Origin: Candidatus Latescibacterota bacterium | GTDB lineage: Bacteria; Latescibacterota; UBA2968; GCA-2709665 | Length of the DNA: 64,000 nucleotides | NCBI GenBank assembly: GCA_963662665.2 | Contig: CAXXJS010000019.1 | Location: 23,450-87,449 of the forward strand | Reading direction: 5' to 3' | In this document: in pieces, positions 1,688 through 61,053 of the stretch | How positions within the stretch are numbered: the first letter of the stretch is position 1 | Layout of the letters: every line of letters starts with the position of its first letter | Position numbers and translations under genes: made by a program | Notes under the pieces: model-generated | Seen by the model: only the letters and a program-made list of their open reading frames with translations | What the model was told of the DNA's origin: nothing | Database searches by the model: none

Positions 1688-3055
1688 ATGGCATCTGCTC
1701 GCGATACGGCAATCGAAGTGGTTCGACGCCTCCACGCGCGGGGATTCCGGGCGTTGCTGGCCGGCGGGTGCGTCAGGGATATCCTGCTGGGGCTCGAACC
1801 CCGGGACTACGACGTCGCGACCGATGCCGATCCCCAGCAGGTGATCGGCATTTTTCAGCGCGCCCGGCCCGTTGGAGCGCACTTCGGTGTGGTTGAGGTG
1901 CGGCTGGGGGGACACGCCTTCGAGGTGGCACGTTTCCGGCGCGACCTGGGCTACAGTGACGGGCGTCATCCCGATGCGGTCGAATTTGCGGACGAAACCG
2001 AGGATGCCCGGCGTCGTGATTTTACCGTGAACGGAATGTTCTGGGACCCCCTTTCGGACCGGGTGCTGGATTACGTGGGCGGACAGGCGGATTTGAAGGA
2101 TAAAGTGATCCGGACTATTGGCGCGCCCGAGGACCGGTTCACGGAAGACCGCCTGCGAATGATGAGGGCGTTGCGGTTCGGCTGCCGCTTCCAATGGCGG
2201 ATCGACGGCGACACGTTTGCGGCGATTGGGCGTCTGAGTGAAAATCTCGAGGAGGTCAGCAAAGAACGCGTCCGGGACGAATTTGTGAACATCCTGACCG
2301 AGGGTGGCGCGCCTCTGGGGGTGCGGTGGCTGATTGATTCCGGGTTGATGAACGAGGTCGTACCAGAGGTGCTGGCGCTCGATTGCGTCGCCCAGCCGCC
2401 TGAGTTTCATCCCGAAGGCGACGTGCTGACCCACACGTTGATTATGCTGGGACTGATGCGCAGGCCGTCCCCGGAATTGGCCATGGCGGTGCTTCTGCAC
2501 GACGTGGGCAAGCCGAGTACGTTTAAATCAGCGGACCGTATTCGATTTGACAACCACGTCCGCGTGGGCGCCGAGATGACACAAGAGATATGTCACAGGT
2601 TGCGGTTTTCAGGGGAGGCGAGCCGTCACATCGTTCGACTGGTGGCGGACCATCACCGCTTTATGCACGTTCGGCAGATGCGGAGGAGCAAATTGAAGCG
2701 CTTTCTGCGCGTGGAACGATTCGACGAACACCTGGAACTGCATCGGGTCGACTGTTTGTCAAGCCACGGGAATCTGGACAATTACCGGTTCTGCCGGGAA
2801 GCCCTGGAAACATTGGAGCCCGAGGAGATTCGTCCGGAGCCGTTGATTACCGGCCGGGACCTTATCGCACTCGGGTACCCGCCCGGGCCGGCTTTCAAGA
2901 CCGCGCTGAGGGCGGTGGAAGACGGCCAGCTGGAAGGCCGCGTGAGAGACAGGGAAGGTGCGTTGCTGTTCGCCCGGAATCTGTTTGAACGTGGCGCGAC
3001 CTCCGAGTGCGCCAGGCCCGCCGAAAACGGATCCGCTGCACAACAGACGGGATAG
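1688..3055 (+). CDS. CCA tRNA nucleotidyltransferase with HD domain
   Basis: GGCVRD, DYDVAT, RRDFTVN, EDRLRMMRA, LLHDVGK; start moved to ATG 1688 just after the murA stop. Confidence 0.9.
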   Translation: MASARDTAIEVVRRLHARGFRALLAGGCVRDILLGLEPRDYDVATDADPQQVIGIFQRARPVGAHFGVVEVRLGGHAFEVARFRRDLGYSDGRHPDAVEFADETEDARRRDFTVNGMFWDPLSDRVLDYVGGQADLKDKVIRTIGAPEDRFTEDRLRMMRALRFGCRFQWRIDGDTFAAIGRLSENLEEVSKERVRDEFVNILTEGGAPLGVRWLIDSGLMNEVVPEVLALDCVAQPPEFHPEGDVLTHTLIMLGLMRRPSPELAMAVLLHDVGKPSTFKSADRIRFDNHVRVGAEMTQEICHRLRFSGEASRHIVRLVADHHRFMHVRQMRRSKLKRFLRVERFDEHLELHRVDCLSSHGNLDNYRFCREALETLEPEEIRPEPLITGRDLIALGYPPGPAFKTALRAVEDGQLEGRVRDREGALLFARNLFERGATSECARPAENGSAAQQTG

Positions 3056-3216
3056 CGGCCCCTGGAGGCAAAAAACCGAAGGGTGTGGCCTCCTGGCTGG
3101 CACACGATTTGTCGCGTCGGCCGGCACGTTGGGAACCATTGCCGGGCAGGGGCGTTTCCAGATTGAGAGGCCCGATGCAATTACCCGTTTCGCACCCACT
3201 TCTATACAGGTGTCCG

Positions 3217-3792
3217 ATGCCAGGTCTGATCCGATCCGTTTTGACCATTGCAATTGTGTCCGTCTGGTCTGCGCAGCTTCAGGCGACAACTGTGGTGCGG
3301 TTCGCATTCGACTCGCTGTGTGAAAAAGCGGAGACGATCGCCCACGTTCAGTGTGTTTCTCGCAACAGCTTTATGGATGACGGCCGTGGAGAAATTGTAA
3401 CCCGGCACCGTTTCAGGGTAATCACACCCGTCAAGGGCAGTCCGGGCGGCGAGATCGTCCTCACGCTTCCGGGTGGCACCGTCGACGGCCGTCGGCTTTA
3501 CATACCGGGCATTCCCGAGTTCGAATTAGATGAAGAGGTCGTTCTATTTCTTACTTCCCCTGACAGGCATGGATCGGCATGGCCCCTGGGACTCGGACAG
3601 GGCTGCTATCGCGTACCCGAAACACACGAGGGCCCCGCACAGGTCAGGATGCAGCCAGGTACCACGCCTCTGCCCGCGGGGGCACTGTTCAAGCCTGCGC
3701 TCAACAGACCCTCCCGACCCTTCAATGTGCCGCTCCAGCGGTTCCTCCATCAGATTCTGCTGACGATTCCGGAATCATCCGACGAACGGTGA
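3217..3792 (+). CDS. secreted hypothetical protein
   Basis: Signal-like N-terminus ending LQA-TTV; PGG.V.G, P.F..DEEVVLFL and GLGQG pattern of a conserved uncharacterised family. Confidence 0.6.
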   Translation: MPGLIRSVLTIAIVSVWSAQLQATTVVRFAFDSLCEKAETIAHVQCVSRNSFMDDGRGEIVTRHRFRVITPVKGSPGGEIVLTLPGGTVDGRRLYIPGIPEFELDEEVVLFLTSPDRHGSAWPLGLGQGCYRVPETHEGPAQVRMQPGTTPLPAGALFKPALNRPSRPFNVPLQRFLHQILLTIPESSDER

Positions 3793-4109: not shown

Positions 4110-5303
4110 ATGTTCAAGTTGCATTTTGACATTCGGGATATCTTTCGGGTGGTTCGGCTCGGATGGTCCGGCAAGAAGATCTGGGTGGGCTTGTGCGGCA
4201 CCCTGATCGCCTATGCCGGATATTCCATCCTGGCCATCGCCGACCACCTTCTGGCCGGGGCCACGATGGGAGAGCTCTGGCAACGGTACGGACTTTTCCC
4301 GGCGCCTGCTCCGTTTCCTGCCACACTGTCGGGTGCGGCCATCGACGTGGTTGCGATGCTTTACGCCTGGGTTGTGGTTTTTTTAACGGTGTGCATGATC
4401 TGCAAGATCACCTACCAGCAACTGAAGGGTGACGATTTTTATTCGTCGGGCGACGCATTCGCTTTCATCAGACAGAACTGGAGCGGCGTCGTATGGGGGC
4501 CGGTAGCCACGCTGGCGCTGTTGATATTCTTTATAATAGCCGGCATTGTTCTCGGATGGCTGGCAGGGATGATTCCCTGGGCGGGAGAATTGGCATTCGG
4601 GATTTTCTTCATTCCGATCTTCTTTGCCGCGCTGGTTGCTGTCTTTATATCCATCGCGTTTGTCGTGTCCGTTACCATGTCACCGGCGGTCGTGGGAACA
4701 GTGGGCGAGGACGCGCTCGAGGTGGCCATCCAGTCCTTTTCATTGGCCTGGAGCCAACCCTGGCGGCTGGTATTGTACATGCTTTGGATGAAGATTTCCG
4801 TCTTTGCAGGTTCTGTTTTGCTGGGATTTTTTATGGCGTCCGCCATGGGGTTGGTCACCTGGGCCTGCGGCCTGTTCATGAAGGAAAAGCTTGCCAATCT
4901 GGTCTACGTGGCGGGCCAATACGTTCCGTTTGATTTCACCCGGTTTGATTGGTTGTTCACGGACATTACGGTTTTTCTGCCGCCGGCAGGCACCCCTTCC
5001 GCTTCCGAACTGCTGGCTGGCGGAATTCTTGGCGTAATGTTGATTCTACTCACTGTAGTCTTCAGTTCTTACGTGTTGTCCGCCTATGCTTCGGGAATCA
5101 GCCTGATTTACGTAATTCTTCGGAAACGCAAGGACGACGAGAATTTGCTCGAGTGGGACGATGACGAGGCGGAAGAAGATGAGGAACACCCAGCAGAAGC
5201 GGAGGCGCCGGGGAACGGAGGAGAGGAGACCGGCGAGGGCGCGTCCGTGGAATCGGAGAACGGAGACGGTGAGTCGTCGGACACGCAAGCCAAACAGGAA
5301 TGA
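4110..5303 (+). CDS. multi-pass membrane protein with acidic C-terminal tail
   Basis: RBS AAGGAGG; several hydrophobic segments; D/E-rich tail. Confidence 0.75.
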   Translation: MFKLHFDIRDIFRVVRLGWSGKKIWVGLCGTLIAYAGYSILAIADHLLAGATMGELWQRYGLFPAPAPFPATLSGAAIDVVAMLYAWVVVFLTVCMICKITYQQLKGDDFYSSGDAFAFIRQNWSGVVWGPVATLALLIFFIIAGIVLGWLAGMIPWAGELAFGIFFIPIFFAALVAVFISIAFVVSVTMSPAVVGTVGEDALEVAIQSFSLAWSQPWRLVLYMLWMKISVFAGSVLLGFFMASAMGLVTWACGLFMKEKLANLVYVAGQYVPFDFTRFDWLFTDITVFLPPAGTPSASELLAGGILGVMLILLTVVFSSYVLSAYASGISLIYVILRKRKDDENLLEWDDDEAEEDEEHPAEAEAPGNGGEETGEGASVESENGDGESSDTQAKQE

Positions 5304-57488: not shown

Positions 57489-58685
57489 ATGATGAAAATC
57501 CTCGGACATGTACGGTTTCGGTACCTGTCGATGTTCGGCCTGTTCCTGGCTTTGGCTGCCTGCGGAAAGACGCCGCCCACAGTGGACGACGATCTTTACG
57601 AAGAGTACCCCGGGTTGCCCTACGGGATCATGATCACCATCGCCGGCACCGGAGATGCCGGCAGGAATGCGGCGGGATCGGGTCCACTCGATGCGGAACT
57701 GTATTTCCCCCAGGATATGGCCGTCGGTCCCGACGGTCGGACCTACATCCTGGACTGGAACAACAATCGGGTTGTCGTGATCGATAACGGAATCGTGCGT
57801 CCCCTGATCGGCAACGGCGAACCGGGCGAGGCGCTTGCTGGTTCAGCGCTGGAGGTAGGGGTCGATCATCCGTCCCATATTTCATTCGATCCGCAGGGAC
57901 GGCTGGTCCTGTCGGCCTGGCAGAATTCAAGGATCCTGAGGTACGACTTCACCACGCGCCGCGTCGAGCCCATTGCCGGCCGGGGCGATCGTGGGTTTGA
58001 AGGTGATGGCGGCCCTGCACTCGAGGCCTCGTTGAATCTGCCGAGTTCCACGGTCTTCGGTCCGTCCGGCCGCATGTATATCTCAGACCAGGGCAACCTC
58101 CGCATTCGCATGGTCGATCTGGATGGTATGATCACCACTGTTGCGGGTACCGGACGGGAGGGACTTGCCGGGGACGGCGGTCCTGCTATTCTGGCCGATC
58201 TCTATGCACCGACTGGTGGCGCGGCGCAGCCCGGCGGACGAATTGCCATGGATAGCCGCGGCAACCTTTATATCGCAGATACGTTCAACAATCGCATCCG
58301 CATGGTGGATACTTCGGGCAGGATCAGCACGGTTGCCGGCGGCGGAAGTATCGGACCCACTGCCGGAACCTATTCGGGAGATGGCGGCCCCGCAACCGAG
58401 GCCAATCTTTCGCGCCCCAGCGACGTGGTCGTCGATGCGGAGGGAAACCTGTATATAGCCGATACCGGTAACCACTGCATCCGCAAGGTGGATACGAAGG
58501 GGATAATTACCACCCTTGCCGGTCGGTGCGGTGAGCCGGGTTTCAAGGGTGACAGCGACCATCCCCGATGGGGGAAACTCCGGAGTCCCTATGGGGTCGC
58601 GCTGGATCAGGACGAGAATCTGTACATCGCCGATACATTCAACCACCGGATCCGCATGGTGTACAAACACATCGCCGAAAGATGA
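57489..58685 (+). CDS. NHL-repeat (teneurin-like) beta-propeller lipoprotein
   Basis: Lipobox LAAC; repeated GDGGPA..A.L..P and GNLYIADT.NHRIR. Confidence 0.9.
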   Translation: MMKILGHVRFRYLSMFGLFLALAACGKTPPTVDDDLYEEYPGLPYGIMITIAGTGDAGRNAAGSGPLDAELYFPQDMAVGPDGRTYILDWNNNRVVVIDNGIVRPLIGNGEPGEALAGSALEVGVDHPSHISFDPQGRLVLSAWQNSRILRYDFTTRRVEPIAGRGDRGFEGDGGPALEASLNLPSSTVFGPSGRMYISDQGNLRIRMVDLDGMITTVAGTGREGLAGDGGPAILADLYAPTGGAAQPGGRIAMDSRGNLYIADTFNNRIRMVDTSGRISTVAGGGSIGPTAGTYSGDGGPATEANLSRPSDVVVDAEGNLYIADTGNHCIRKVDTKGIITTLAGRCGEPGFKGDSDHPRWGKLRSPYGVALDQDENLYIADTFNHRIRMVYKHIAER

Positions 58686-58750: not shown

Positions 58751-59254
58751 ATGGGCGTGATTAAACTGGCTCTGTTCACCGGGGTTGTGCTGGGGGCGGG
58801 CTTCATTGTGTGCTTCCGCGACGCGGGGGCCGCAAAGGTCGAGAAATCCAATCCGCTGCCCAGGGTGCAGGTTGTGACGCTGGAGGGAGATACGCTGAGT
58901 CTGGCCGAAGTCTGCGAAGGCAAGACGTCATTCATTTATCTGTGGGCTACCTGGTGCAAGACCTGCAAGAAAGATATGAAGCACGTTTTCAAGTTGAGGG
59001 AGAAATTCGGAGACAACGTGCAGGTCTTCGGAATCGCCTGGAAGAACAGCGCGGAGGAAATTCAGACCTATTTCGCAAACAGGAAGAAAGTCCTGCACAG
59101 TTACATCGACTCGGATGGCAGGGTGTTCGAGGCCTTCGAGACCCGGTTGACGCCCACGGTTGTAATTGTAAATGCCCGGGGCGAGGTCCTTTATTCGGGT
59201 TACGGCTCCTTTCGGAAATACAGAAAAATTCTGAACAAGGCATTGAAGGGATAG
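58751..59254 (+). CDS. TlpA-family thiol-disulfide oxidoreductase with N-terminal signal/anchor
   Basis: GGAGGAG RBS; WATWCKTC; TP cis-Pro motif. Confidence 0.85.
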   Translation: MGVIKLALFTGVVLGAGFIVCFRDAGAAKVEKSNPLPRVQVVTLEGDTLSLAEVCEGKTSFIYLWATWCKTCKKDMKHVFKLREKFGDNVQVFGIAWKNSAEEIQTYFANRKKVLHSYIDSDGRVFEAFETRLTPTVVIVNARGEVLYSGYGSFRKYRKILNKALKG

Positions 59255-59297
59255 TCTTCAGTTGAACATTGACTTCACCGTTTGAGGAGTGTGGACG

Positions 59298-60272
59298 ATG
59301 AGACGACTATTGGTGGTTCTCCCGCTGATCCTGTTCACTCACCTGTTTTTCGGAAACAGATCCGCCCTGGCGCAGCCCGGCGTAAGCTGACGCCGTCCCG
59401 TACTCCCGGGCGGGAGAATGCTTCAGGGAAGTCTGATTACCAAGGATCTCCTGGTTCTGAGCTTGAACTACGAGTACGAATATCTGGGCGATGCGATGTT
59501 CGGTACCGGCCCGATCCCCAACATCAACCAGGAAGTGACCAGCATATCAACGGTTTCGGTATTCGCGAGTTACGGGGTCACGGAATGGTTCGGCGCAGCC
59601 GTGGTGCTTCCGTTTCGATCCATAACCAACGACAAGATTCTTCTTCCCGGTCAGTACGACAACCAGTATCAGGGCGGTAAATATGTCCGTCATGCCGCCG
59701 GTCTCAGCGACGTCGTTCTGATGTTGAACATCGTGCCACCTCTGCCGGAGGCATTGCCCGGACTACTGTTTTCTGCAGGTGTCAAGCTCGCGAACGGGTC
59801 CACCCACGCGGTCGACGAATACGGCCAGCGTTTCGCCGACCTGCTGCAAGTGGGATCCGGCAGCGTGGACCCCATTTTCTCCGTCAGTCTGTCGCGCGCA
59901 TTCGATAACCTGTTCTTCTCCGGCATGCTGTTCACGCGGATCATCTCCCGTGAGAATGTCTACGGGTACAAATACGGGAACGAGGTTCAGGGCATCTTTT
60001 CGATGGATTATATGCACGGTGACGTATTTATCGCGGGGTTCAGCGTAAATCACGTTCACACGGCTCGCGATTATTTCCAATATGGTAAGATCGCCCGAAA
60101 ACGCGGTGGCACGTGGCTCTATCTGGCGCCGAAACTAGGCGTACGGGCAATGGAGAATCTGAGCCTTGAAGCCAGATTGCCTCTTCCCGTATACCAGAAC
60201 GTGAACGAAAGCCAGCTGACCTCCGATTACCAGTTCCACGTGGGCGCAACATATCATTTCTTCGCCAGATAA
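59298..60272 (+). CDS. candidate selenoprotein (U31), outer-membrane beta-barrel 'transporter' (MetA-pathway-like), 324 aa
   Basis: GAGGAG RBS, ATG 59298, signal peptide ending ALA-Q; single in-frame TGA at 59388; continuous with ORF 59418..60272 (GLSD, GVKLANG, QVGSGSVD, YKYG, LPVYQ); hairpin at 59403-59416. Confidence 0.78.
59403..59416 (+). promoter_or_regulatory. candidate bacterial SECIS element
   Basis: CTCCC-GGGC-GGGAG stem-loop; loop starts 17 nt after the TGA. Confidence 0.62.
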
Positions 60273-60321: not shown

Positions 60322-61053
60322 GTGGCACCGAAAGAAGCCGAAAAGATGTGGGCGGAACTGGCGCCTTACTACGATGTTCTCTACCAGTGGAAAGACTACA
60401 GGTCCGAAGCCGCAAGGATTCATCAACTGATCCAATCGCATCGATTGTCATCGGGTAATGCCCTCCTGGATGTCGCATGCGGAACCGGAGAACATACCCG
60501 GTTTCTGCGCGAACACTATTGTGTAACGGGAATCGATCTCAATCCCGAAATGCTGAAAGTTGCCCGCAGAAAAATCCCCGGGATATCATTCCTTCGCCGC
60601 GACATGGCTTCTTTCGACCTGAAACGCCGCTTCGATGCCATTGTCTGCCTTTTCAGTTCGATTGCCTACGTGAGGACCTACCGGCATCTGAGGCGGACGA
60701 TCGCCTGTTTTGGCAAACATTTGAAACCGGGTGGCATTCTTGTCATAGAGCCCTTTTTCACAACCAGGACGTTTCTACCGGGATCGATCCAGGGCGGCAC
60801 CATGGAGGGAGAGGGCGTCAGAATCTCCAGGCACAGCGTGAGCAGACGTCGGGGAAATCTGGCTGTTCTCGAATTCCATTTTCTTCTATCCACGAAAAAG
60901 GGCGTGCGGTACTTCCGAGACACCCACGAATTGGCCTTGTTCGACTGCGAGCGACTTCTGAAGACTCTGGAGGATGAGGGACTCCGGCCGGAATTCGCCA
61001 AACATGGATTGATGCAAGATAGGGGACTCTATCTCGCGTTGAAAGACAATTGA
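60322..61053 (+). CDS. class I SAM-dependent methyltransferase (TylM1/DesVI-like)
   Basis: YD..Y..KDY, LLDVACGTG, FDAIVCLFSSI.Y, HLKPGG. Confidence 0.85.
   Translation: MAPKEAEKMWAELAPYYDVLYQWKDYRSEAARIHQLIQSHRLSSGNALLDVACGTGEHTRFLREHYCVTGIDLNPEMLKVARRKIPGISFLRRDMASFDLKRRFDAIVCLFSSIAYVRTYRHLRRTIACFGKHLKPGGILVIEPFFTTRTFLPGSIQGGTMEGEGVRISRHSVSRRRGNLAVLEFHFLLSTKKGVRYFRDTHELALFDCERLLKTLEDEGLRPEFAKHGLMQDRGLYLALKDN

Follow-up and report, generated by a model that had tools for sequence, protein, structure and literature searches.

On the evidence of sequence comparison, positions 59298 to 60272 of a 64,000-nucleotide stretch of a Candidatus Latescibacterota bacterium genome (assembly GCA_963662665.2, contig CAXXJS010000019.1, positions 23,450 to 87,449 of the forward strand; hereafter the window) are a genuine, mis-annotated selenoprotein gene whose product is a variant of the COG4313-like outer-membrane channels with a lone selenocysteine (Sec) on its N-terminal segment. 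The stop codon that seemingly splits this gene is almost certainly read as Sec, and the family to which it belongs was not found in the selenoprotein catalogues examined. We are highly confident that the stretch constitutes one selenoprotein gene in which the UGA at codon 31 is decoded as Sec, and think it quite likely that a Sec-bearing, exported barrel is the best explanation overall.

An in-frame TGA between a signal peptide and its barrel

Read directly from the DNA, codons 1-25 encode MRRLLVVLPLILFTHLFFGNRSALA, followed by QPGVS, the TGA at 59388-59390 and RRPVLPGGR. The ATG at 59418 that opens a 284-residue open reading frame (ORF) lies in the same frame as the ATG at 59298, the stop codon is at 60270-60272, and the product obtained when the TGA is read as U has 324 residues. 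The initial annotation had combined a strong ribosome-binding site, ATG 59298 and the string QPGVS-TGA-RRPVLPGGR, in frame with ATG 59418, into a hidden selenoprotein made up of a signal peptide, Sec and a barrel. Its coordinates and reading are exact, and the proposal itself is borne out by the conservation of the TGA, a covarying hairpin, the presence of the Sec machinery and selection at the protein level on both sides of the TGA, all of which are presented below. The start preferred by the ORF caller was a GTG at 59289, yet this would overlap the ribosome-binding site; in the majority of orthologues (20 of 35 loci) an ATG is found 30 or 28 codons before the TGA. By the AxA rule, signal peptidase would cleave between ALA and Q, and the aligned loci likewise encode a hydrophobic leader that ends in AxA and is followed by Q. 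Sec is the sole Sec/Cys residue of the mature chain, which has zero Cys, so that an internal Se-S bond is impossible. The tblastn matches of the closest loci span residues 1-324.

Conservation of the TGA and of the protein sequence around it

To fetch related loci, two patterns of residues in the C-terminal half (GYKYGNE.. and VNESQL..) were used, a choice that is blind to the N-terminus and to the TGA site. The 35 loci (numbered with the prefix L) come from 24 genome records, which bear the labels Latescibacterota, Gemmatimonadota, KSB1, Calditrichaceae, Fidelibacterota, Marinimicrobia/Neomarinimicrobiota or plain 'bacterium', and their products are 37% to 93% identical to the window protein. 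TGA is found at the identical position in all 36 sequences, the window included. In every one of them the frame 5' of the called ORF is open as far as a start codon and a hydrophobic leader save for this one stop, whose context across the 36 sequences reads AQ[GP]GVS-stop-RRPxLPGG[SR]. The first Arg codon after the TGA is of the CGN type in 28 sequences and of the AGR type in eight, the second is CGN in 33 and AGG in three, and the Ser codon ahead of the TGA, AGC or AGT in most loci, is TCC in L039. This switching between codon families at Arg and Ser shows that selection acts on the amino acids across the TGA, beyond selection on the RNA alone. Several loci (e.g. L018) have no ATG for a long stretch 3' of the TGA. 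A barrel starting after the TGA, at M41, would be devoid of an export signal, which also counts for translation across the codon.

The window genome carries a second copy of the gene on the minus strand at G000:C34:34711-38607 (L045), whose product is 53% identical and which has the same single TGA and hairpin; two copies of the barrel gene are also present in eleven other carrier genomes. Assembled contigs (not raw reads) from three public runs belonging to three studies, one of which is possibly the window's own source, display 0 differences over 59200-59500. These comparisons exclude both an error of sequencing and a nonsense mutation private to the window.

Public gene calls, in turn, appear to be truncated at the TGA. 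Of 39 homologues in the protein database (numbered with the prefix P), 34 are 200-289 residues long and cover at most 89% of the query, and all of the short ones that were aligned (13 of the 34 in one alignment, 15 in another) begin downstream of the TGA. P0013 (324 aa) and P0020 (326 aa) are full-length proteins with a signal peptide and Ser at the Sec site.

A covarying SECIS-like hairpin

RNAalifold returned one consensus helix for the 36 sequences (columns 16-20 paired with 25-29), located 12 nt after the TGA and closed by a four-base NGGN loop, which we regard as a candidate Sec insertion sequence (SECIS) element. Its 5-bp stem is paired in all 30 distinct rows of the alignment and, with the loop-closing pair 21:24 added, 100% of 180 cells are paired. 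Pair 18:27 is represented by CG (24 rows), UA (4), AU (1) and UG (1), and pair 21:24 by GC (23), AU (4), GU (2) and UA (1). None of 500 shuffles attained the observed pairing, covariation or number of cells changed on both sides, and registers slid along the alignment were paired at 24-80%, as against 100% for the helix. Columns 18 and 27 correspond to third codon positions, of Leu and of the second Gly respectively, so that the compensatory changes at this pair are synonymous and speak for the RNA rather than for the protein. The loop, at +21 to +24 from the TGA, reads GGGC in the window and GGUC in L039. The selD gene of the window genome, which belongs to an established Sec family, also contains a TGA, and the 7-bp hairpin downstream of it has its GGUC loop at +21 to +24, the same loop position as in the barrel gene. 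This selD locus (L043, G000:C40:298599-302519) has its TGA at locus position 1528 in the motif TCG-U-AAK. Compared with the E. coli fdhF element, the barrel hairpin has a shorter stem. When the window was crudely scanned for a TGA with a GG-loop hairpin and open flanking frames, nine places emerged, including the site at 59388; the two sites that were translated, at 4127 and 15600 on the plus strand, look like non-coding frames.

Selenocysteine machinery

The window genome possesses selA (483.5 bits), selB (371.7 bits, over cut-off) and tRNA-SeC, clustered on one contig (C16), as well as selD (355.6 bits), which has one internal TGA. Among the other carrier genomes (of the 24 records), selB was above the curated cut-off in eight of the ten tested, versus two of 14 control genomes; the two misses among carriers are small or fragmented assemblies, and in one of these a match is cut off where a contig ends. 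Of the 48 long, non-overlapping ORFs in the window, 30 terminate in TGA, which makes it the commonest ordinary stop, so that there is no global recoding of this codon.

Weighing of the decoding as Sec

A number of observations do not sit easily with Sec at this position. No homologue with Cys at the exact position of Sec was found, although such homologues are the usual hallmark of Sec families; a hidden Markov model (HMM) alignment puts C in the Sec column for 24 of 188 database proteins, solely by way of gaps. Other relatives have Ser (P0013, P0020 and P0053), Glu (P0070) or Ala (P0096) at the site, implying that the barrel can exist without the Sec residue, and Trp occurs there in four fragmentary proteins (P0047, P0102, P0133 and P0138). 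As to the hairpin, the stem is short (5 bp) and lies inside the conserved coding sequence for L-P-G-G, so that part of its conservation reflects protein constraint. The minimum free energy fold of window positions 59380-59450 taken alone is no better than that of shuffles (z = 0.65), making the hairpin visible only through the alignment, and a search of 59250-59550 against Rfam at E <= 10 returned just a chance miRNA match. P0013 and P0020 could be natural variants that have lost Sec. P0013 reads LLGG instead of LPGG, and its hairpin may have decayed.

Among the residues named in the initial annotation as pointing to a nonsense mutation or a sequencing error (Trp, Arg and Gly), Trp was encountered on paper only, in the four fragments just cited. 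Two of these run into unrelated sequence, and the nearest relatives at the DNA level (63-79% identity) carry TGA; we infer that their W stems from TGA having been called under a code in which it specifies Trp. Taken at face value, the Trp residues, together with the short hairpin and the failure to find an exact Cys homologue, would suit a UGA that is read through in some way other than as Sec, whether by near-cognate insertion of Trp or another residue at a leaky, hairpin-stimulated stop or under a code in which TGA is a sense codon. We hold this to be very unlikely given that TGA is the commonest stop of the window, that each gene copy has exactly one TGA, that the window genome has the full Sec machinery and eight of ten other carriers have selB, that the loop occupies the same position as in the selD hairpin, and that the Trp-bearing proteins are fragments whose nearest DNA relatives carry TGA. 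A nonsense mutation, pseudogene lesion or sequencing or assembly error, with the 284-residue ORF from ATG 59418 or nothing as the true product, is how gene callers and public records treat the gene and would agree with the shortness of 34 of the 39 homologues, but is extremely improbable, and already refuted as far as sequence data can go, in view of the TGA shared by all 36 sequences from 24 genome records, the identity of contigs from three runs over the site, the conservation as protein of the stretch between the TGA and the ATG, the loci that lack a nearby ATG (L018) and the absence of an export signal from an outer-membrane barrel beginning at M41.

An arrangement in which the TGA would separate a 30-residue secreted peptide from a barrel gene of its own was also considered and rejected, as the intervening region is conserved as protein, often has no start codon, and would leave the barrel without a signal peptide.

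Table 1. Features of the Sec barrel gene and of the two genes preceding it (window coordinates).
Feature	Coordinates	Strand	Remarks
NHL-repeat beta-propeller lipoprotein, lipobox LAAC at residues 22-25	57489-58685	+	Pfam NHL 2.9e-29, TEN_NHL 4.7e-32
TlpA/ResA-like membrane-anchored thiol:disulfide oxidoreductase, WATWCKTC	58751-59254	+	Redoxin 8.8e-15, AhpC-TSA 1.2e-12
GAGGAG, Shine-Dalgarno-like	59284-59289	+	8 nt before ATG 59298; from sequence
Complete putative selenoprotein gene, 324 codons and stop	59298-60272	+	TGA codon 31 read as Sec
Signal peptide, residues 1-25, ending ALA	59298-59372	+	Probable cleavage before Q26
Mature N-terminal segment, residues 26-50, proposed lumen plug	59373-59447	+	Carries S-U-R-R-P-x-L-P-G-G; plug role proposed by analogy with Pput2725
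Sec codon UGA, mature residue 6	59388-59390	+	TGA in 36 of 36 sequences
SECIS-like hairpin, stem CUCCC/GGGAG, loop GGGC	59403-59416	+	12 nt after UGA; RNAalifold consensus
Predicted beta-barrel domain, residues 51-324	59448-60269	+	AlphaFold2 model and Foldseek

Barrel fold and comparison with known channels

The window protein matched no Pfam family at E <= 0.01, no NCBIfam model at E <= 0.01 and, even at E <= 1, not PF13557 (Phenol_MetA_deg), and a search of PDB sequences with the family profile gave nothing relevant. PF13557 does match eight of 29 family members, weakly (best E 3e-6), and is precomputed for 10 of the 39 database homologues. The designation of the product as a MetA-pathway-like barrel is thus upheld by its predicted fold (through the match to 4rl8 described hereafter) and by these weak family matches, while the window protein itself goes unmatched.

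An AlphaFold2 model based on an alignment of 29 rows, in which U was replaced by C, had a mean predicted local distance difference test score (pLDDT) of 79.9 and a predicted template modelling score (pTM) of 0.76. Residues 51-324 are modelled as strands, the first long one starting at residue 51, with block pLDDT mostly between 64 and 92; residues 30-50 (pLDDT 56-65) include a short bridge (30-31) and a helical turn (38-41). The best Foldseek matches of the model were FapF (5o65; E 6.6e-11, TM 0.63/0.68, identity 13-14%) and the COG4313 channel Pput2725 (4rl8; E 2.4e-10, TM 0.65/0.77, the latter on the target), with FadL, porins and autotransporter barrels far behind. The fold is accordingly predicted to be a 12-stranded barrel of the COG4313/FapF type.

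The best structural match, FapF, through which Pseudomonas secretes amyloid, is also a 12-stranded barrel, but no Fap gene is found among the window genes annotated with Pfam (57489-58685, 58751-59254 and 60322-61053). FapF has a plug helix and a coiled-coil. In Pput2725 from Pseudomonas putida F1, which has 12 strands, about 14 N-terminal residues reach into the lumen from the periplasm and leave the channel almost closed (PMC4493636). The window protein resembles Pput2725 in its predicted 12-stranded barrel of similar size and in having an N-terminal segment ahead of strand 1. This segment is, however, longer than that of Pput2725 (~25 versus 14 residues) and carries Sec, whereas the word 'cysteine' is absent from the main text of the Pput2725 paper (PMC4493636). 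Pput2725-type channels are further linked to the uptake of hydrophobic compounds, in favour of which nothing in the window locus speaks.

Relatives with a Cys pair at the mature N-terminus

An exhaustive profile search identified 1921 representatives at E <= 1e-3, 430 at 1e-10 and 15 at 1e-30, a steep fall indicating that the Sec family proper is small and the superfamily around it large. By a crude rule of our own, 82 of the 149 new representatives listed were judged to be full length with a leader. In 67 of these 82 a Cys pair is found within residues 13-50 (CC in 45, CxC in 8, Cx2-5C in 14); five have one Cys and ten have none. Three distant homologues from the protein database (24-27% identity) similarly display C-G-S/Q-x-x-C after the signal peptide. 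The statement in the initial annotation that related barrels often carry Cys motifs at the mature N-terminus was therefore accurate. The simple Cys-to-Sec substitution at position 31 is the one weak point of its reading, since the Cys pair lies two to three residues before Sec and the only close full-length relatives lacking the TGA (P0013 and P0020) have Ser. The commonest distant form reads AQ-G-C-C-S-x-G-T-P and that of the Sec family AQ-G-G-V-S-U-R-R-P, both spanning nine residues from Q to P; it is in this ungapped register that Sec falls two to three residues after the pair. With a profile built from 29 CC-type proteins, full-length matches were obtained to the window gene (9.1e-38) and to its paralogue (2.5e-40), leaving no doubt as to homology.

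The CC-type relatives have in common with the Sec family a signal peptide, the AQ dipeptide, a short Gly/Ser-rich segment ending in Pro, the barrel, and a lipoprotein gene directly downstream. They differ from it in having two Cys instead of one Sec, a DUF3179 protein rather than a beta-propeller as the partner, and often HMA, CusB-like or TonB-dependent receptor genes, rather than TlpA, as neighbours. These neighbours were established by a metagenome scan that yielded 80 CC-type loci (L051-L130), of which 65 with usable flanks were analysed. A downstream ORF was found within 600 nt in 57 loci and, with four on the opposite strand omitted (three of them short, with little flank), 53 were scanned. 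All but one of the 53 encode a DUF3179 (PF11376) lipoprotein, the exception being a MutS gene, which makes the barrel and DUF3179 genes a near-obligate pair. Among the nearest upstream ORFs (n = 55), seven have an HMA domain and six encode a CusB-like fusion with a heavy-metal-binding domain (HMBD). The second and third neighbours (n = 107 out of 113, once duplicates of L127 and two ORFs already counted had been dropped) include seven TonB-dependent receptors, seven HMA proteins, five MauE-like proteins and two P-type ATPases. GroEL and GroES also recur near CC-type barrels, which we take as lineage synteny.

Genes adjacent to the Sec barrel

As claimed in the initial annotation, the gene immediately upstream of the window barrel is TlpA-like [Table 1], and the same is true of 22 of the 35 loci. 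Its translation has a hydrophobic N-terminus, and the Redoxin and AhpC-TSA matches are above the Pfam cut-offs. The NCBIfam matches to ResA, TlpA and DsbE all fall under theirs, hence the name 'TlpA-like' only. The WATWCxxC motif and the cis-Pro TP motif are invariant in ten aligned orthologues of this protein.

A gene for a beta-propeller lipoprotein is adjacent in 34 of the 35 loci, the exception (L030) ending at a contig edge. In the window and 12 loci (L007-L017 and L040), an NHL lipoprotein gene stands upstream of the TlpA-like gene as the first member of a conserved NHL - TlpA - barrel trio. In 22 others, as well as for the paralogue in the window genome, a different propeller lipoprotein is encoded immediately downstream of the barrel, its gene starting 1-64 nt past the barrel stop or overlapping it. 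This downstream propeller is predicted to be seven-bladed and YVTN/YncE-like (model pLDDT 83.4). The gene that follows the window genome's paralogue (L045) encodes a YVTN-like propeller lipoprotein, and no TlpA-like gene was detected beside it. L017, the most distant locus of the window type, has its NHL lipoprotein gene in tandem duplicate (967-2187 and 2187-3398) and an FGE-sulfatase-like gene upstream.

Further neighbours in other Sec-type loci include esterases and FG-GAP/ASPIC-UnbV proteins. The latter were checked in four loci (L019:1325-3154, L022:1376-3343, L033:1675-3441 on the minus strand, and L039:6403-8148); three have a type IX secretion sorting domain, and that of L039 has a dockerin domain instead. 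The FG-GAP/ASPIC gene abuts or overlaps the TlpA-like gene in L019 and L022, which suggests that the two form one operon in these loci. Directly 3' of the barrel in the window is a class I SAM methyltransferase gene (60322-61053) that is syntenic in L007-L016 and L040 only, not in L017 or beyond, and is probably not part of the barrel module.

Possible role of the selenocysteine residue

With high probability, the hairpin 12 nt downstream directs SelB and tRNA-Sec to decode UGA 31 and, upon removal of the signal peptide, Sec becomes the sixth residue of a segment of about 25 residues ahead of the barrel. For what happens beyond this point we tentatively propose a mechanism, which as a whole we rate at somewhat below even chances and which draws on Pput2725 and on the Cys-pair relatives. 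By analogy with Pput2725, this segment would enter the lumen from the periplasmic side and place a selenol(ate) in the path of the channel, where it would bind or relay a thiophilic substrate, be it a soft metal or some reactive species of sulfur or selenium. The co-encoded periplasmic TlpA-like reductase would keep the selenol reduced or resolve a mixed Se-S bond, and the beta-propeller lipoprotein encoded alongside would work with the channel to deliver or receive the substrate. A thiophilic substrate is suggested by the location of the Cys-pair relatives among metal-handling genes. Next to the invariant Arg-Arg beside Sec, an anionic partner, such as an oxyanion, a polysulfide or polyselenide, or an acidic patch of the barrel wall, would fit better than a bare cation, and we do not choose between metal and chalcogen. 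In its most specific form, the proposal is that the lone selenol at the tip of the plug acts as a covalent or coordinative relay of a chalcogen (selenide, selenite, polysulfide) or soft metal across the outer membrane to the lipoprotein and is reset by the periplasmic reductase; this particular version we consider doubtful.

There are reasons for caution regarding this role. The invariant Arg-Arg argues against the binding of a cation at this place, the model positions the N-terminal segment with low confidence only (pLDDT 56-65), and no metal-related genes were seen in the Sec-type loci annotated. The downstream propeller has no conserved Cys besides that of the lipobox, and its fold is generic (YVTN, YncE, WD40) and as such silent on function.

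Alternatively, Sec may serve in redox catalysis rather than as a ligand, be it in an outer-membrane-tethered peroxidase or reductase with a single Sec that the TlpA-like protein recycles, or in a redox latch by which the plug is locked and unlocked via a mixed Se-S bond. A dedicated CxxC reductase conserved beside a lone Sec that has no resolving Cys would be consistent with such a role, and most known bacterial selenoproteins are redox enzymes, as far as the inventory entries consulted go (PMC13188914). We nonetheless find this unlikely: the surroundings of Sec, a short and poorly ordered segment, have no peroxidase- or reductase-like fold or motif, variants with Ser and Glu exist, and the Cys-pair relatives are found among metal-handling genes. 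More improbable still is a mainly regulatory Sec that would tie synthesis of the channel to the selenium supply and have little role in the mature protein; it would agree with the presence of Ser, Glu or Ala at the site in relatives, but a mere switch would need neither a dedicated reductase nor the S-U-R-R-P motif, which is invariant or nearly so across proteins of 37-93% identity.

Novelty and implications

To our knowledge, bacterial selenoproteins are nearly all soluble redox enzymes. A Sec that sits at the N-terminal end of a channel in the outer membrane, lacks a partner Cys and belongs to no CxxU or UxxC motif would be unusual both in its place and in its chemistry. It would imply that a Sec-bearing chain is exported and assembled into a barrel, and that a periplasmic reductase is dedicated to it. 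In the portion consulted of a 2026 inventory of 119 prokaryotic selenoprotein families, the sole outer-membrane entries are the GSU2204/MtrB-PioB barrel (NF041027) and the FCYXU-type TonB-dependent receptor (NF049945) (PMC13188914). Both are, like the window protein, predicted Sec-containing outer-membrane barrels (PMC13188914), but they belong to unrelated barrel families, and the Sec of the window protein is at the very N-terminus of the mature chain, apart from any CxxU or UxxC motif. A barrel of the PF13557/COG4313 type does not figure in Table 1 of the same inventory (PMC13188914), and term searches found no matching family in a 2022 review (PMC9312934), a preprint on eight new families (10.1101/2022.07.06.499078) or the deep-Sep paper (PMC12013277), the supplementary tables of which could hold such candidates. 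Full-text literature searches combining selenoprotein with outer membrane and Latescibacter, MetA-pathway with selenocysteine, and selenoprotein with TonB-dependent receptor, beta-barrel and SECIS returned nothing relevant.

The public records of the family that we have seen are truncated at the TGA and have lost the signal peptide, as a result of which leaderless 'hypothetical protein' or 'transporter' entries stand wrongly for these genes in Latescibacterota, KSB1, Fidelibacterota, Marinimicrobia and related uncultured lineages. The association of a barrel bearing N-terminal Cys or Sec with a lipoprotein, be it a beta-propeller or DUF3179, is suggestive of a two-part outer-membrane system. 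DUF3179 is itself a catalogued selenoprotein family (UxxC/T) according to the inventory entries consulted (PMC13188914), and its pairing with the CC-type barrels may provide this family with its first functional clue and partner protein. Just three papers came up in a full-text search on DUF3179, two of them selenoprotein reviews. If the relay by the selenol proved true, the Sec barrel would provide the first example of an outer-membrane channel that uses selenium itself in transport.

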